A DNA stretch of 63,965 bases, counting the filler, from Globobulimina sp. (lineage: Eukaryota), in assembly GCA_003354225.1 (NCBI GenBank). It is 30 parts of 30 records of this genome, joined end to end, with 100 filler letters (N's around TTAATTAATTAA, not from the genome) between each part and the next. Parts side by side here need not be neighbours in the genome. Positions count along the whole stretch, not along the records: positions 36,317 to 38,351 come from PIVH01009557.1; positions 38,452 to 40,486 come from PIVH01009558.1; 28 more parts are not named here. One strand, written 5' to 3'. The notes under the pieces are model-generated. The model was not told where the DNA came from and searched no databases. It saw only the letters and a list, made by a program, of their open reading frames with translations. Both the position numbers and the translations under genes were made by a program. Shown one piece after another: positions 1-38,692 of the stretch; the first letter of the stretch is position 1; every line of letters starts with the position of its first letter.

Positions 1-1863
1 AACACAGAAACAAAAAATAATTGTTCTGAAACAGAATGCGAAATGATTTCAAATACAATAACGAGTGAACATATAAATGGTTCGACATTTACACAAAATT
101 ATAACGATATGATGAAATTATATAGTTTTTTGCAATCGAGTGGTCTTGACTTTGATGCAATATTTCCTTTAGCTTCATTCTTGAATGATAATTTTATGTC
201 TACTCCAAACATAAATAGTTTGTATGATATACCATTTATAGTGGAGGATGAATATGGTTTTGATAAAATATGTGATGATTCCATTCAAAAACAATCAAAA
301 CATGCCAGCAATGACATTAAACATATATTTGAAAATGAAGAAAAAATGAATAAGAATAACTGGCTATTTATAACAAAATATGGTGAAGATAAGCAGATGA
401 AATATGGCAAAAATAAGAGATTGCGACAAGATTTACTACCCAATGGGATACAATCTAAATATTCAAAAGATGAAATGATACAAATTATGAGGAAAACAGC
501 AGGCGTTGGTCGAGAGTTCAATGGCTTAAAATTTTATGATTCCGAAATTTATCTAAATCAATTAATGTTACGATGTGTTGTTTTGAACCATCAGTTCCAG
601 GTTGATGTACAATTACTATTTGAACAGAGTAAAAATGTCATATTTCGTGCTGGTCCATTGAAGAAAAAACAACGCTGTACAATCAAAACAGAAACGGATT
701 ATTTTAATCAGGAATGGCCGCAAAGTTCATGTTTGTTGGATATTATCCGTTGTACCCTTACCTTTGAAAATATTTCTGCACTCATTGACGGTATAAAGTT
801 GTTTGAGAATACAATCGCAAATAATGTTAAAAATGCGTCATCCGGATGTATAAAAGAAATATTACGCATAAAAAATGGTTTTGCGGATTATTCCCATTCG
901 AATCCAGAGTATGTAGACATAAAATATAATGTCGGTGTTTGTGTGAATAATATGCAATGCATTGGTGAAGTGCAGCTGTTATTGAGTGATATGGGCAAAT
1001 TTAAATTGAAAGCGCATAAATTTTATGGTATCATTCGGCGGAAAGAGTATTTTGATAATTTAAAGTTAGTGACCACTTTGAAAAATAATGTGGATAAAAA
1101 ATTAATGATATTTTGTCATCAAGGAAATGCAAAAGGAATTAAAGATATTATCATCAATCAAAAAATTAAAAACTTGAATGATTTGACGAGAATAAATAGG
1201 CTGAACGATAGCTTATGGTCTCTTTATCATTATGGTCATGTTCAATGTGTAAAAACATTTGTTGCAATTTTTAAAAATGATAAAAAGAGTATTGCTGAAT
1301 TTTTCAAATTGCCGGTTAGTGATTTTGGCGGAACGGGTTTAATGCTCTCATCGTTTCATGGCAAATTTGAAACGGCACAATATATTTTATCACAATTTTC
1401 TGAGAGAGAATATATTTTTCGACGAAACGATTTAGGACGAAATGCGTTTATTTGTTGTTCATTTCAAGGCCATTATGAAAATGCAAAGCTTTTATTATCA
1501 AAATTAAAGGATAAAAAGGATATTATTAATCTTATTCAATCAAAAACATCAAACAATGAAAATTGTTTAATTGAAGCTGCAAAGAATGGACACAAAAATA
1601 TTATTTCATTGATTTTATCAAAATTTGATGATAAAAATGATAAAATTAAAATGTTGAAAGAAAGAGATAATTCAAATATGAATGCATTTGATATGGCGTG
1701 TACTAATAAACAAATTAAAACCGCTCACTTTATTTTATCTCAGTTTAATGATAAAAAAGAAGCATTGCAAATTATAAAAGACTGCATTGGAAAATTGGAT
1801 CAAAAAATGATAAATACTGCAGTTGCAATATCACTTAAAAACTGGACACAGGAATTTTCTTGA
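1..1863 (+). CDS. RelA/SpoT-like nucleotidyltransferase domain + C-terminal ankyrin repeats (frame open to contig start)
   Basis: GPLKKKQRCTIK...LDIIRC...RIKNGF...YVDIKYN...GEVQL...AHKFYGIIR (649-1040). Then ankyrin-like repeats: GGTGLMLSSFHGK, GRNAFICCSFQGH, NENCLIEAAKNGH, NMNAFDMACTNKQ. Confidence 0.75.
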   Translation, partial: NTETKNNCSETECEMISNTITSEHINGSTFTQNYNDMMKLYSFLQSSGLDFDAIFPLASFLNDNFMSTPNINSLYDIPFIVEDEYGFDKICDDSIQKQSKHASNDIKHIFENEEKMNKNNWLFITKYGEDKQMKYGKNKRLRQDLLPNGIQSKYSKDEMIQIMRKTAGVGREFNGLKFYDSEIYLNQLMLRCVVLNHQFQVDVQLLFEQSKNVIFRAGPLKKKQRCTIKTETDYFNQEWPQSSCLLDIIRCTLTFENISALIDGIKLFENTIANNVKNASSGCIKEILRIKNGFADYSHSNPEYVDIKYNVGVCVNNMQCIGEVQLLLSDMGKFKLKAHKFYGIIRRKEYFDNLKLVTTLKNNVDKKLMIFCHQGNAKGIKDIIINQKIKNLNDLTRINRLNDSLWSLYHYGHVQCVKTFVAIFKNDKKSIAEFFKLPVSDFGGTGLMLSSFHGKFETAQYILSQFSEREYIFRRNDLGRNAFICCSFQGHYENAKLLLSKLKDKKDIINLIQSKTSNNENCLIEAAKNGHKNIISLILSKFDDKNDKIKMLKERDNSNMNAFDMACTNKQIKTAHFILSQFNDKKEALQIIKDCIGKLDQKMINTAVAISLKNWTQEFS

Positions 1864-2037
1864 ACTTTGTTAGCAGACAATAACAGTTAACTTATTGTTT
1901 TTTTGTTAAATCACATATATATATATACTTATTATAATAAAGCCAAACTTTAAAAAAGCTGAAATGCGATATCTCGGGATTTATTGGTGCTATAACATTC
2001 AAACTTTTTTATTCGGTTTCTTTGTTAAAAATGATTC

Positions 2038-2137
2038 NNNNNNNNNNNNNNNNNNNNNNNNNNNNNNNNNNNNNNNNNNNNTTAATTAATTAANNNNNNN
2101 NNNNNNNNNNNNNNNNNNNNNNNNNNNNNNNNNNNNN
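2038..2137. other. Artificial contig linker (first of 29: 44N-TTAATTAATTAA-44N, recurring every ~2134-2137 nt)
   Basis: Identical 100-nt spacer with stop codons in all six frames. Intervening contigs fall steadily in length from 2037 to 2034 bp. Confidence 0.99.
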
Positions 2138-2652
2138 TCCATTACGAATTTCTACCATAAATGCACGAAATATTAACCAAACAATTCAATTCCTATATTT
2201 CATTGTAAATTTGTATAATGCATCCATGAGATCACAATATCTTTTTCCGCATCCATTTGTACTGTATTTTTCTATTCTTTATCTTTTCTTGACAGTTGTG
2301 AAGTTTTTGAAATCTTTTGAAATCATCGACGTTGGACGCCTTCAAAAACTTAAGAATCAATCTTTGTCAAACAAACGTTAGAAATCAGTTGCCCCATCAC
2401 CTAGGAACGGAATCCACTGAATCTCACGGGACTTTAATTGCGGTCAATGCACTATTTCAACATGTACAAAAACTAAGCAATCCGTTTTTTTTTATCTCAC
2501 AATAACAGACGACATAAACAAATAACAATCAAACAGAAAACGCCATGACATCAAATATTTTTTATTGTGGTTAAATTTACAAAATGAATCACCAAAAAAA
2601 AATTATTTTACGTAGAAAAATAAATACATTTCGGTTGGGATTTTGATCCACC

Positions 2653-4174
2653 TCAATACAATTCAGCTAAGCTTTTGCTTAATATATTAATAAATATCTC
2701 AGCATGTTTAATCTCAAAAATCAATGCAGGTCTTAATCGAATACTTTTCTTTCCACAAACACCAATATGAATTCCATTTGCTCTCAATATTCCAATTAAC
2801 TTACTTCTTTCCTCTGTATCATCACAATCAAATGCAATAAATGTGCCCTTTCCACGTACATTTGATATCTTCGCATTACTCATACTTAGTTCACTTAATT
2901 TGTCCATCAAATATTCTCCAGTTTCATTCACATTTCCCAACAAGTTCTGTTTATTAATCACATCAATCACAACTTGCGTCTGTAGCAATTTAATTGGATC
3001 ACCGCACCACGTATTAAATATACGATATCCCTCTTCCACTTTCAAATACTTCTTATAATAAAAGCCGCTCGAACACATTTTCTTGGCGAAAGTAACAATA
3101 TCTGGTGAACCGCCATCATTTTCATCTAAATCCCAATGCTGATGAGCCCAGAATTTACCTGTCGGACAACAGCCAGTTTGCACCTCATCCACAATAAATA
3201 TAACTCCATTATCTTTACATAATTTCCTCAATCTTTTGAAGAAATCATTGGAACAATGATTATCTCCGCCTTCAGCTTGTATCGGCTCAACAATTAACGC
3301 TACAATATCTTTCCCCGATTTTTTCATCATACTCTCGATATTAATCAAGCATTCTCGCTCTATGTTGTCATTATACTCTTTGTGAATGTGACCAGATCTA
3401 TTCACAGGGAATGGAGTTCGCAAAATCATGTCCAAAACGGGAAGATCAACCTTGTGCATAGGGTTTGTCTGCGTGCAGGATAATGCTAGAAACGTTCGAC
3501 CATGGAAGCCGCCTTCGAATGCTATAATACCTAAACTGAGCGGTGTTGGCGTTCCGGGCAGTTCGTGTTGCAGACAACTGCTTAAATCCAGATCAGTGGG
3601 AGGCTCATCGCCACGTTTACGATACGCATGATTTATTAATGCTAATTTGAGAGCGTTCTCATTTGAACACGAACCGCACTGCAAAAACATGTACAGATTG
3701 AAACAATGAATAGTGGTTATTTGACTAAACAGGAATACACAGGACATACCATCATAAGTTGCACTGCGTCTAAACCTTGCGGTGCCACTGACATTAGGGA
3801 ATTGTAGACTGTTTGTGGGAATTCTTTAGGTGGACAGTTGCCTAAAGCGGGTCTGTTAACTATCCAAGCAATATTACTTTCGTTGTGGATAAGTTGATTG
3901 ATCATATCTTGATTGTTGTATCCCAATGGGATGGATGATATGGATTGGAATAAATCTTATTATATGGAAACAAATTAGATTTAAATCAAAAATCGGAAAA
4001 ACATGCAAGGATTTTGTTTCTGTCGCAGTGTATATGTATTTGGTACAAATCGTTCAAAACAAATTATAGTGTGCTGGTTCATTTTGTTGTGTACAAACCT
4101 AAATATACATTTCCATCCACATCTGCGACATAATTACCAATGCTTTTGTCGTAATCTACAAAAAATTGTACTTC
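2653..4174 (-). CDS. ABAT: 4-aminobutyrate aminotransferase (eukaryotic GABA-T), 5' partial; introns 3956-4098 and 3679-3749
   Basis: Spliced reading gives [36 protein letters not shown]...[33 protein letters not shown] and the PLP lysine in TFAKK. GT-AG introns restore the frame. Confidence 0.95.
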
Positions 4175-29810: not shown

Positions 29811-30286
29811 NNNNNNNNNNNNNNNNNNNNNNNNNNNNNNNNNNNNNNNNNNNNTTAATTAATTAANNNNNNNNNNNNNNNNNNNNNNNNNNNNNNNNNN
29901 NNNNNNNNNNTATTAGACTACTGCCAATTAAGTTCGGAGGTTAAACATTCGAAAACCCATCTTTGTTTACTACCGAAGGGCTTTAGCTGCAAGCGTTCCA
30001 AAAAGTGATTCTTGTCCCTTTGGAACATCTATCAACAGATATACATTCAAAAATTCATTTCAAAATTACCTCTTACATTAAATTATTATACTCATAAACA
30101 CCCATAAAAGGCATGGGGATTCCATAATATAGCATAATATATATATATATATATCCTTGCATGTTATATAATTGTTTGTTTGATATTTTATGAAAAATAT
30201 ATATGTTTTTTTTATATATAAAATTACAGAGTATACAAACATATACAACAGAAACACAAACAAAAACAAAAACACAAATAATAAAA

Positions 30287-30350
30287 TGTGATGATTGGGA
30301 TTTGAACCCAAATCTTCTTTAAATAGATGCTTTCCTTAAGCCATCATCAC
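30287..30350 (-). ncRNA. 64-nt tRNA-like cloverleaf (no variable region), copy 1
   Basis: GTGATGA/TCATCAC-A acceptor, GCTT/AAGC D stem, ATCT/AGAT central stem, TTGGG-TTCAAAT-CCCAA T arm, followed by TTTT. Confidence 0.7.
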
Positions 30351-31946
30351 AATAAATTAGACGCCGTATGGCATAATGGAAATAACCACAATAATTCATT
30401 AATTTTGTCTGTATATTGAGAACCCACTGCATTTGCAAGATTGCAGGCTTCAATTTTATCAGTGTTCAAATCAAATAACATAAATTCATCAGTATCGCCA
30501 TATGTAAATTTAGGATAACGTTCAGAGTTAATGGTATCATTTCCATTTAATGCTTCTAAACATTCTGATTTATACAATGTGTTTGCTGTTCCCTCATCAA
30601 TTATAAATTGTGGCTAATACCACTCATCAAAAAACGCATGGTTTGGTATTGTATACTTATTATTTCCATATCCCGTCCATGTATTTGTAACATTTGGTTT
30701 GAACCAAATGCAAAGTTATCACCACACATTCTCATGTTAATTAATTCTGTGCGTTGTTCATAATTTGAGACACACGCTTCGTTACAATTACATTTGATAT
30801 CCTGCCATATTTGTAAACTGTTATGGTTACTATCTGAGGTATCATTGCTTATATTTGCGATCTCTGTCAATATATTGGCGCATATTTTGTGGAACAGAAA
30901 TGTGGAGCTTTGGCCCTGTTTTGTGGAACTAGCTTTGTGAGCAAGTCAAACTAATTGTATGTAGTTTTGCGGAACATATTTTTATTAAAAATTAAATCAT
31001 ACTCATTCTTAACATAAACAGCAATATTCCAATCACCTTCAAACAAATCAGTACTATCCAAAACACGCAATAATTGGTTCTCAATCAAATAACTTTTATT
31101 ATTACTTAAATTACTAACTGTTGAACAGTTGATAATGTCATCTTCATTTATAATTATCCATAATATAAAATCTTTTGCTTGAAAATCCAAATTAATTTGT
31201 CTGTGTCCTGATGAATTGAAATGAAAAACAATAATATCATTATCTAAATCAACGTTAAATATAAGGTCCAATAAATCAATATCTTCAACTTCTTCTTTAT
31301 CATTATCAGGATAATGAGTTTCATATTGAGCGCCATTAAAAAGTTTCAATTTTGTTTGTTGTTGAATTGTATAATTAAGATCGTCAATAAACGTACGAAA
31401 TAATTGAATTTAATTGTAATTCTCTTGTGTAATACCGATATTATGTAATGAGTCCATATAAATATTTAAATCAATGCAATTTTTACTTATCATATCACGA
31501 ATAATAATTCCAGTAATATACAGCAATGAATTTGGTTCTGTTTTCATATAATTTAAAACTATAAATCTATTTAACTGTGGAATATTGAATATAATTTGGA
31601 AAAAGCCTGATAGCGATGAATAACTGAGGCCACATAAACTGTTATTTATTTTTTTACTATATATTATAAATAAAATTATTTTTCTATATGCTTTAATATA
31701 CAAACTAAACTTTATTCGACAAGTAATGCAATAAATTGTGTTAATAATTGATTTTTCACCAAATTTGTCAATTTCATCCATCGAATCCATAAAAATTAAT
31801 GCGTTCAATTGCATCAATTCACTGCAAATACCACACATCCAAAGCTTGCTTTCATTGTTACTAAAAAACTGCATATTATCGCCCAAAACACATTTCTTAT
31901 GATACTTAATACGGCAATTTGAACAATCAAATAATACATTAGATTA
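30347..31946 (-). pseudogene. Disrupted ORF (in-frame stop at 31410, frameshifts); weak resemblance to a USP/C19 protease
   Basis: Consecutive ORF pieces 31410-31886, 30951-31349, 30601-30870 and 30347-30577. FQIIFNIPQLNRF resembles the USP post-Cys-box helix. Confidence 0.55.
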
Positions 31947-36216: not shown

Positions 36217-36817
36217 NNNNNNNNNNNNNNNNNNNNNNNNNNNNNNNNNNNNNNNNNNNNTTAATTAATTAANNNNNNNNNNNNNNNNNNNNNNNNNNNN
36301 NNNNNNNNNNNNNNNNTATTCATAAGATATGGATTGGAAAAATAAATAAACTGCACAAAGCAGGTGCAAAATCCAAAAATCATAATGCAATGCTTTTCGT
36401 GGTACAATGCCACAAAAATCCCCATTAAAAAATCAATTTTGTGTTGTGATTGTGGCTGTGGATTGTCACTCAAATTGACTAGTGCTAACTAACTTTTTTC
36501 TAAGTGGTAACACTTAAAACTTCGAAAAACACTTAGTGCATTGCATGCAAGGAGCGTGGATTAATTAAAAGTACTCATTCCACTCATCCCTTGACCTGAT
36601 TATAGAATTTATAATTCATTTGAAAAATATCTCTTACATAAAATTATTGCACTTATAAAATCCATGAAATATCTGTCTCTTTGTGTTTTGCAATTTTTTT
36701 ATTTCTTTTTTAATGGAAAATGTGCGTGTTTTAATTTATATGAGAAGATATTGTATACTCAAACATATACAACAGAAACAGAAACACAAACACAAAATGT
36801 TTGTGAAAAATAAAAAA

Positions 36818-36881
36818 TGTGATGATAGGGATTTGAACCCAAATCTTCTTTCATTAGATGCTTTTCTTAAGCGATCATCAC
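36818..36881 (-). ncRNA. 64-nt tRNA-like cloverleaf, copy 2
   Basis: GTGATGA-TC-GCTT AAGAA AAGC-ATCTA ATGAAAG AAGAT-TTGGG TTCAAAT CCCTA-TCATCAC-A, then T6. Confidence 0.7.
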
Positions 36882-37930
36882 AATAAATTGGATAATGTGG
36901 GCCAACATAATCTCTCTTTTAAATATGTTTTTGCGCTGTCTTTCTTCTCTTTATCTGCCTCAATTAAGTCATATTCGTCGCTGTCTGTGTCTGTGTTGGC
37001 AACACTGAGTTTCATGTAATTCCACATGTTTTTAATCACAAATATTTTAGCTTTACTCAGATTAATTCTGCGCTGTCTATCTTCATTTTCCAGTTTTTGT
37101 CATCATAAAAATTAACAAATCGGTTGAACAAACCGCTGATTAATGGCACATCAGAGACGTTAGAATCAGATACGGGGCAAAACGATGGATAATAAATATT
37201 TGTGGCAATCTGTTTTAATTTTGTCGCGGTTTTGTAAACAATAAAATTTAATGGAGGACGCGATGAAATTCGCGACCGATTGCTCTGTAATTAATAAGGA
37301 GTCATTATCGTCGTTGCTATTTATGGTAATAATTTGATGCGAGTCTGTCTCATAAACATCAATTAAGCATAAATCATAAGGAGTCATCGTCGTCGATTTG
37401 CGACAGGATATGATATAAAGTGCTCATTGGACCGGCTTCAAAGCCCATTTGCGTCCAAATAAATTTATTGCTTTGAGACTCGATGTGATCCAAATATAAT
37501 CCAAATATTTTCTCTTTTTTATAAAAAAGGTGCAATTTATCCACATAATAATCGCGTATACGAATATAATCGCGAACATAAATTTGAATTGGTTCGGAAA
37601 GTAAATCTGTAACAACAAAATTGTATTTTCCTGTATATGTACGTACGATAAGTGCAAGGATACAATGTATACAATGATTTAATACTGCAGCGGTACAGTC
37701 CCTGTTGATACATTGAGGGTTACTTCCAAAACCCATTGGGCGTCGTGGATGTGATGGGAATTGATGCACTCAACGGATACGTTTCCGCCATTTGGCTGAT
37801 TAATATTTCAGAGTTTGCATCGCGTATTTTCTTAATTGCCTCTTGTTTCGTGCATTTTCTTTTTGATAAACAGTATCCACCTTTTATCCATTCCAAATCC
37901 ATTACAACAGCTTCTAACTGCTATTCTGTA
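36878..37930 (-). pseudogene. Frameshifted ORF ending LCWPTLSNLL*; weak USP Cys-box resemblance
   Basis: Pieces 37720-37902, 37374-37769, 37166-37387 and a final frame joined by frameshifts; contains PMGFGSNPQCINRDC..VLNHC. Confidence 0.5.
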
Positions 37931-38692
37931 TAATTAAAAAACAACAAAAAATGAAAAAAGTAAATCTGAAGGGGCAAAAATAGATTGCTTTAAATCGGTT
38001 TCATATGAATTTAATACTGAATTGGGTTAAATTCATTAATGGAAAACCGATTCAAAGTTGCCAGACTAAAGCGTAAGTGCCATGTAATTAACTTTGAAAG
38101 TATTAGCACTCAGAAAAAACGTAGTTAGCACTAGTCTAATCGCTTTATTTCCAGTGTCAATTTTGGTGTGTTTGCAGTGGTGGATTGACACTCAATTCCT
38201 TTTCTCCTGTCTTCAAAATCTGTCTTAATTGATTGAGATCGCGCCAATCTAAGTTTCCATTAAATGCCTGGTTTAGTTGAAATCAATCATACATCCATTT
38301 AATTGGATTATTCATCCAATCTCTGTAATATAATATATACAGATTATGAATNNNNNNNNNNNNNNNNNNNNNNNNNNNNNNNNNNNNNNNNNNNNTTAAT
38401 TAATTAANNNNNNNNNNNNNNNNNNNNNNNNNNNNNNNNNNNNNNNNNNNNTGGAATGGGTGGAATGGGAATTGGTATTACTGGCTGTGTTGGAATTGTT
38501 GGCGGTACCCATTGCAGTAACACTTTATTTGCGGATAATGGATAGATTAAAAATATAGAGAATAATAATTGCTTTATCATGGTGTGTGTGTGTGGTTAGG
38601 AGATTGTTAAGTATTGCTGAAAGGATGGTGACAAGGTTTTTTTTTTAGTAAAATACTTCCACTTTACCTTACATTCCAGAAAATGCCTGATT

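Follow-up and report, generated by a model that had tools for sequence, protein, structure and literature searches.

A probable non-autonomous, Pack-like transposon copy with terminal inverted repeats and a gene fragment in a Globobulimina contig

Pack-type transposons (Pack-MULE and Pack-CACTA elements), in which terminal inverted repeats (TIRs) enclose an interior fragment of a non-transposase host gene, are the described systems closest to the element reported here, a 1660-bp (1.66 kb) copy at positions 36477-38136 of a 63,965-nt stretch of DNA (hereafter the window) from the foraminifer Globobulimina sp. (assembly GCA_003354225.1). The superfamilies of such transposons differ in their termini and in the target-site duplication (TSD) that flanks each copy: Tc1/mariner elements duplicate TA, PIF/Harbinger elements the 3-bp TWA (TAA or TTA), the hAT, Mutator, P and Merlin elements 8-11 bp and Mutator-like elements (MULEs) 9-11 bp, and CACTA/EnSpm elements have 5'-CACTA termini. 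Miniature inverted-repeat transposable elements (MITEs) are below ~800 bp in length and have no coding capacity. It is by these defining features that we set the present element apart from the named superfamilies. To our knowledge, the transposons of foraminifera are almost uncharacterised. A full-text literature search, whose scope included bioRxiv 10.1101/2022.12.15.520654, retrieved no paper on a foraminiferan DNA transposon family among the texts that it covered; as far as the consulted portions of the respective papers go, foraminiferan genomes have yielded Merlin-like matches of doubtful origin (PMC8101967), and one draft foraminiferan genome has a repeat content of 30.5% (PMC13746701).

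We find that 36477-38136, together with one base on each side, is probably a broken, non-autonomous, Pack-like copy of a TIR transposon, of unassigned superfamily, that was inserted into another repeat. The window consists of ~30 contigs, each 2034-2037 nt long, which are arranged in descending order of size and connected by N44-TTAATTAATTAA-N44 linkers, with a G+C content of ~31%. Adjoining pieces are not genomic neighbours, and the element is confined to a single contig (36317-38351; PIVH01009557.1). Because the window is composed of ~30 unrelated ~2-kb contigs, the true flank around the element amounts to only 160 nt on the left and 215 nt on the right. Contigs of the public run X1 (0.39 of sampled words) and of two sister runs were aligned to this contig, with 343, 1 and 11 contigs placed, respectively; all depth figures below are summed contig depths in X1, and not copy numbers.

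Element ends and the insertion site

The two TIRs (Table 1) are 39 nt long and lie 1582 nt apart, with 34 of 39 positions (87%) complementary and the first 15 exact. The terminal 15-mer GACTAGTGCTAACTA occurs exactly twice in the window, in inverted orientation and at the two TIR tips, even when two mismatches are allowed (on average 0.04 matches in shuffled sequences, with none of 100 shuffles reaching two), and no second copy of the TIR was seen in the other ~29 contigs of the window. Beyond the 39 nt the likeness between the two ends is not significant (score 22; shuffles averaged 19.4). The termini begin with GACTAGTGC, the TIR terminal motif being also written GACTAGTGCTAAC, and the palindromic ACTAGT can be read directly at both tips. 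Each TIR contains a pair of 8-mers, 22 nt apart; position 36507 is a C in 14 X1 contigs (depth 1466 of 1514), so that in most copies the second 8-mer of the left TIR also reads AGTGCTAA. An earlier note on this DNA, made from the sequence alone, had described imperfect TIRs of ~40 bp, exact over the first 15 bp, that enclose a frameshifted open reading frame (ORF) and a cloverleaf located ~340 bp from one end, and all of these were recovered in our analysis.

Two X1 contigs join position 36472 directly to 38138, skipping 1665 nt (36473-38137), with three letters (AAT) that fit either side of the joint; homology in the flanks therefore resumes directly outside the terminal motif. A third X1 contig, which is more diverged, links 36475 with 38161 and has 25 letters replaced. 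These bridging contigs represent the host repeat lacking the element, i.e., paralogous empty sites. The empty sites read CACTCA-AAT-CGC, with AAT present once, where the window reads CACTCA-AAT-T-[GACTAGT...ACTAGTC]-T-AAT-CGC. Only 5 nt were thus inserted beyond the 1660-bp core, of which at most 3 are duplicated. The whole of GACTAGT lies inside the element, and a TSD of at most 3 bp (AAT), of 2 bp (AT) or of 1 bp (T) fits equally well. Since the ACTAGT tip is wholly within the insertion and is missing from the empty sites, TA, CTAG and ACTAGT are excluded as TSDs; the palindrome that the earlier note had pointed to is indeed present, but its view that the TSD cannot be separated from the TIR does not hold. 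The empty-site contigs also rule out TWA, with neither TAA nor TTA found in the empty site CACTCAAATCGC.

The element interrupts one unit of a host repeat that has two units here, and the flanks are in phase on both sides. A direct repeat of ~41 nt pairs 36432-36473 with 38156-38195 (score 38, as compared to a shuffle mean of 16.8 and a maximum of 31), and the 61-nt unit formed by the end of the left flank and the first bases of the right flank recurs at 38157-38210, mapping to 36432-36476 and 38157-38210. These flanks are repeated in the genome, with a depth of 47-514, or of 114-514 in the flank bins compared with the ORF (~19).

Scanning public genome contigs with a 25-letter TIR pattern matched a sole contig of 566 nt (L005), and the same pattern gave no match in metagenome contigs. 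Positions 171-261 of L005 are 92.3% identical to window positions 38141-38051 over 91 nt, its TIR is 92.3% identical to the left TIR of the window over 39 nt, and it keeps two AGTGCTAA motifs, 22 nt apart. On the outer side the homology ends after GATTA, 5 nt outside GACTAGT, and the flank further out is unrelated; on the inner side L005 diverges from the window after 86 nt, at the start of the hairpin repeat of the window. Copies ending elsewhere, or flanks remaining homologous beyond the terminal motif, which the earlier note had named as arguments against a mobile element, were therefore not what we observed. In both copies end B reads ATT-A-GACTAGT. This is consistent with a 3-bp duplication of A(A/T)T, reflecting a target preference, plus one terminal base; alternatively, these bases may belong to the end of the element.

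L005 is filed under a genome labelled as a bacterial metagenome-assembled genome (MAG; G001), which also has two contigs (C37 and C40) with the tRNA-like repeat described below; L005 and these two are probably mis-binned eukaryotic contigs. The inner contig end of L005 (445-566) consists of a tandem repeat of TAGGATAGTA / TTAGTA units.

Table 1. Features of the element and its immediate surroundings (positions in the window; a dot marks features given without strand)
Feature	Position	Strand	Basis or details
Left flank, first part of the ~60-nt host repeat unit split by the element	36432..36476	.	Direct repeat
AAT, left copy of the putative 3-bp TSD	36473..36475	.	Empty-site contigs
Left TIR (end A)	36477..36515	+	8-mers AGTGCTAA at 36481-36488 and AGTGGTAA at 36503-36510, 22 nt apart
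Left subterminal region, highly repeated in X1	36516..36612	+	
Passenger repeat, tRNA-like head and ~270-nt tail	36613..36892	-	Second copy in the window
tRNA-like sequence, tRNA-Ile-derived, anticodon arm 4 nt short; T-run (36812-36817) behind	36818..36881	-	
Gene fragment/pseudogene, orphan family	36878..37920	-	Matches P0045 residues ~113-414 and P0001 residues ~56-360
66-nt intron-like insert with GT...AG borders	37631..37696	-	No counterpart in protein alignments
Pyrimidine-rich tract that ends in AG and adjoins the first matching exon on its upstream side	37921..37950	-	
Hairpin-forming repeat in the right arm; hairpin arms 37988-38010 and 38035-38057	37981..38089	.	Inverted repeat and fold
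End B terminal segment common to the window and L005	38051..38141	-	Alignment
Right TIR (end B)	38098..38136	-	TTAGCACT at 38103-38110 and 38125-38132
AAT, right copy of the putative 3-bp TSD	38138..38140	.	Empty-site contigs; ATT-A at the equivalent position of L005
Right flank, remainder of the split host repeat unit, then the next unit	38141..38210	.	

A mosaic interior

Between the TIRs the element is a mosaic of a gene fragment, a tRNA-like repeat and a hairpin repeat. The ORF consists of six overlapping minus-strand frame pieces, running from 37920 to 36878, which are collinear on one protein family. The frame is broken in at least four places, near 37780-37792, 37377-37392, 37150-37175 and 37060-37075, with an additional one-base offset at the intron-like insert. 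At two of these breaks an X1 paralogue has 7 nt (37781-37790) and 14 nt (37152-37173) more than the element, and at another one the related proteins P0023 and P0045 are six residues longer.

Among longer proteins, a 131-aa piece of the ORF retrieved P0001 alone (839 aa, with 49% identity and an E value of 1.7e-21), and no near-length relatives of the piece were found in the protein search. A HMMER run with P0001 as the query over 1.84 billion representatives gave 43 proteins with E values of at most 1e-3, of which 18 had at most 1e-10 and 3 at most 1e-30; fragments are numerous among them. P0045 (432 aa), the closest relative, is matched along residues 113-414, and P0023, with ~80% identity, represents another broken copy. 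No match to residues 1-112 of P0045 was found anywhere in the contig at E values up to 50, nor was the C-terminal part of P0001 (~480 residues) matched in the element. Organism names were available for 6 of 20 relative clusters, all of them foraminiferan (Bolivina argentea or Nonionella stella), and the other 14 came from metagenome or run assemblies. As a side observation, P0001 (839 aa, Bolivina) and P0044 (1763 aa, Nonionella) share one 90%-identity cluster, which hints at transcriptome cross-contamination or at a very conserved segment.

The intron-like insert is crossed without skipping by an X1 paralogue contig (185 nt, covering 37554-37731). A canonical intron at this position was considered and rejected: its removal leaves the frame off by one, and one extra indel is needed. 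The pyrimidine-rich tract ahead of the first matching exon, in turn, may represent the tail of an intron. Overall, we take the interior to include a decayed genomic fragment of a P0001-family gene that was cut at both ends; in line with this, the X1 paralogue contig that bears frame-restoring bases passes into unlike sequence past 37873. The family is probably one of host genes rather than of transposon genes.

No Pfam family scored above cut-off for five ORF pieces, for P0001 or for any of 19 relatives (0 of 19). An AlphaFold model of P0001, built from a 43-row alignment, had a mean predicted local distance difference test score (pLDDT) of 66.6 and a predicted template-modelling score (pTM) of 0.45, and was confident at residues ~50-290 and ~380-615, with the confident N-terminal region predicted to form an alpha/beta and a helical part. 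Foldseek matched this model to no PDB entry at E<=0.001, and the ESM Atlas gave no usable match for P0001. With VIA-align, WWE domains occupied 9 of the 10 top rows for residues 494-621 (best Z 7.2, root-mean-square deviation 2.2, 73 aligned), and residues 46-130 retrieved generic ferredoxin-like folds at Z<6. These middling Z values hint at a WWE-like domain in the P0001 family, in a region that is not encoded in the window; VIA-align listed no transposase-like fold for the model, a result that, at such Z values, does not exclude one.

These data bear on the possibility that the copy is a decayed autonomous element whose P0001-like ORF, having lost both ends, was its own transposase, belonging to an undescribed superfamily restricted to foraminifera. 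The ORF does occupy the centre of the element, but only ~300 of the 839 residues are present, and its depth (~19) is ~100-fold under that of the arms. That the family has neither a Pfam domain nor a Foldseek match counts in favour of this possibility; the WWE-like domain, the sole fold hint (Z 7.2), is no nuclease or integrase fold. Also in its favour are the abundance of paralogous and fragmentary members (the 43 proteins retrieved with HMMER, and P0023 as the second broken copy) and the restriction of organism-named members to foraminifera in 6 of 20 clusters; the 131-aa piece, however, has no near-length relatives, and an X1 paralogue with intact-looking frames, in a contig covering 37733-37873, departs from the element sequence at 37873 and continues with 144 nt unlike the element. 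We therefore regard a decayed autonomous element as unlikely. Its extension to a full foraminifera-only superfamily, defined by an A(A/T)T target, paired AGTGCTAA motifs in each TIR and a P0001-like protein as the transposase, seems to us quite improbable.

The second component of the interior is tRNA-like. The Rfam tRNA model (RF00005) scores 41.7 bits at 36818-36881, as compared to a gathering threshold of 29, at a distance of 341 nt from the left tip (36477), and ARAGORN called no tRNA at these positions. Another copy of the repeat in the window, at 30052-30361 in a different contig, is 78.5% identical over 200 nt and 82.8% over 58 nt, with neither TIR nor ORF around it; its tRNA-like part (30287-30350, minus strand) reaches 52.2 bits in Rfam. 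The longer form of ~280 nt was seen twice, both times in the window. In contigs of X1 and X3 the homology ends at 36812 and at 36883/36884, indicating that in most copies the repeated unit is the ~70-nt tRNA-like sequence alone.

Six further copies were collected, four from metagenome contigs by a pattern scan (L001-L004) and two from G001 (L007 and L008). Six copies, when aligned, show preserved acceptor, D and T arms, with one D-stem pair showing a compensatory change (U-A to C-G in 2 of 6), and a T-run follows the tRNA-like sequence in 5 of 6. The anticodon region of the consensus fold has a 4-bp stem and a variable 9-nt loop, and departs from the 5-bp stem and 7-nt loop of a tRNA. One copy, L004, is 4 nt longer in the anticodon arm and was called by ARAGORN as tRNA-Ile (AAT), and the other 7 of 8 scanned copies were not called. 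The tRNA-like sequence thus belongs to a tRNA-Ile-derived family that is independent of the TIR element and far more abundant, with a depth of 15158 vs ~19 for single-copy sequence. The earlier note had presented the element as the carrier of a tRNA mimic; the mimic is present, but rather than being a trait of the element it is a passenger from a separate, much commoner repeat family.

In both window copies of this repeat, an upstream ORF on the minus strand (36878-37099 and 30347-30613) enters the repeat and ends with ...SNLL*, the TGA lying inside the acceptor stem, and 13 nt upstream are shared between the two cases. Chance, combined with the repeat sequence common to both cases, may account for these endings, or the repeat may provide genes with their ends (n=2). 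The ORF upstream of the tRNA-like copy in contig 29911-31946 had been considered a possible sulfatase C-terminus; Pfam found 0 families there, and this assignment was dropped.

The third component, in the right arm, is the hairpin-forming repeat. The DNA fold of 37940-38136 has a predicted energy of -24 kcal/mol (z -4.0), and none of 200 shuffles was as stable. An X3 contig covers the repeat at 37981-38089, where the depth is ~2970. The repeat, with its 23-nt arms, was not found in L005, and may be a nested small element. Its match to mir-80 in Rfam is weak (20.1 bits vs a threshold of 68).

Copy family, rival explanations and a possible mechanism

Depth differs strongly along the element: it is 18-40 across the ORF region (36929-37880), 1284-3238 in the left-arm bins (36453-36656; 1400-3238 for bins 36453-36588) and ~2970 in the right arm (37949-38084), and climbs to 15158 in the tRNA-like bin. 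In addition, a joint in one contig leads from 36715 straight to 37988 and leaves out 1272 nt, with a shorter side of 20 nt; this contig looks like a short deletion derivative of ~390 bp. The high depth of the arms, the low depth of the ORF and this joint together suggest that short two-arm forms far outnumber the gene-carrying form, of which one copy was seen.

The same figures could also be read as traces of an assembly chimera, in which a short MITE-like element within the flank repeat was stitched, via its high-copy arms, to an unrelated gene and a tRNA-like sequence. The assembly is highly fragmented, the contig in question measuring 2035 nt, at least four segments of very high depth adjoin low-depth sequence, and among the X1 contigs listed none spans the whole stretch. 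Such stitching, however, would have had to come back to the matching arm within the very host repeat unit that it had left, with the phase kept, and X1 contigs cover parts of the interior with 0 differences (36904-37056) or 1 difference (37554-37735), leaving a chimera very improbable in our judgment. Least probable of all, the stretch would not be one mobile unit and two short elements or solo ends, inverted by chance, would flank a resident gene: arm sequence is in great excess over the interior, and the hairpin and tRNA-like repeats are independent families, but each side has one TIR and no complete short element, the flank repeat is in phase outside both TIRs and absent between them, and all 1665 nt are missing from the empty-site contigs.

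A single inserted transposon copy is thus the reading that we favour. The locus displays the features of a class II element, namely TIRs, an insertion with a TSD as compared to a paralogous empty site, and multiple copies that end at the same termini. No transposase was detected in this copy, either by Pfam searches of the ORF pieces and 20 relatives or as a nuclease or integrase fold match, and we therefore call it non-autonomous, in line with the earlier note, whose proposal of a non-autonomous DNA transposon the insertion relative to the empty sites supports.

Several points weigh against this reading. The ends are known as sequence from two copies only (the window and L005), with end A represented by no second sequenced copy, and the empty sites, found in short contigs with a shorter side of 39 nt, are paralogous rather than orthologous. 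If the TSD is of 3 bp, the outermost bases of the element (T and T on the plus strand) are not complementary. The depth of the right-TIR bin is 375, below the 1400 of the left-TIR bin, and summed contig depth does not equal copy number. Moreover, X1 may be the source data of the window assembly, in which case it gives no independent proof against misassembly. The search for a transposase-bearing partner, which the earlier note had called for, found none, which leaves mobility in trans putative; capture of the gene fragment is suggested by its truncation, and no donor locus was seen whole.

If the copy is a transposon as proposed, a transposase encoded elsewhere could bind the paired 8-mers in each TIR and cut at the tips, and reinsertion would then proceed by a cut staggered by at most 3 bp, leaving AAT/ATT in both copies. 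The gene fragment might have been gained in the manner of Pack-type elements. The tRNA-like repeat may have been inserted into the gene fragment or acquired together with it, and would have no part in transposition, and the hairpin repeat (37981-38089) could be either nested or co-acquired.

The termini, the upper bound on the TSD, the putative binding motifs and the carriage of a gene fragment define a TIR family that can serve as a seed for annotating repeats in fragmented foraminiferan genomes. The tRNA mimic, as a genome-wide tRNA-Ile-derived family and not a trait of the element, merits a study of its own.

Comparison with known transposon kinds

The earlier note had stated that the ends could not be assigned to a known superfamily, and this was upheld, as none of the superfamily-defining features that we tested was found. 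Tc1/mariner was rejected: TT and TA are the dinucleotides next to the element, the TA of ACTAGT is internal, and the tip is absent from the empty sites. The hAT, Mutator, P and Merlin superfamilies were rejected as well, with at most 3 bp duplicated and no long TSD, and a MITE was rejected for this copy, which measures 1660 bp and includes a gene fragment.

Two superfamilies come closer. PIF/Harbinger elements and Tourist-like MITEs resemble the element in a 3-bp duplication composed of A and T only next to the TIR, and in the TTA that precedes end B in both copies. However, the empty site contains AAT and neither TAA nor TTA, the two sides in the window read ATT...TAA without a direct TWA duplication, and no DDE or Myb-like ORFs were seen in the element. 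CACTA/EnSpm elements are compatible in a 3-bp TSD, in a terminus (GACTA) that is one base from CACTA, and in short motifs repeated in or near the TIR. In contrast to them, the element tips are GACTA with T or A outside, a 3-bp TSD leaves one extra base outside GACTA, and no CACTA-type transposase was seen.

The passenger repeat resembles tRNA-derived short interspersed nuclear elements (SINEs) and tRNA pseudogenes, being a very abundant tRNA-shaped unit that descends from a tRNA-Ile(AAT)-like gene and has retained the acceptor, D and T arms; unlike in these, the unit is mostly the ~70-nt tRNA-like sequence alone, with the T-run at once behind it.

The closest likeness is to Pack-type elements. 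MULEs themselves are a misfit to the GACTAGTGC termini and the TSD of at most 3 bp, the host is a rhizarian protist and not a plant, and one gene-carrying copy was seen, with its donor locus unplaced. As in Pack-type elements, however, TIRs bound an interior that has no transposase and holds an intron-containing, doubly truncated and decayed fragment of a host-type gene; that this interior comes from a non-transposase host gene follows from the probable host-gene status of the P0001 family. As in these elements, too, short deletion forms are apparently much commoner than the gene-carrying copy. The element therefore represents a new family of a known transposon kind in an under-studied lineage.

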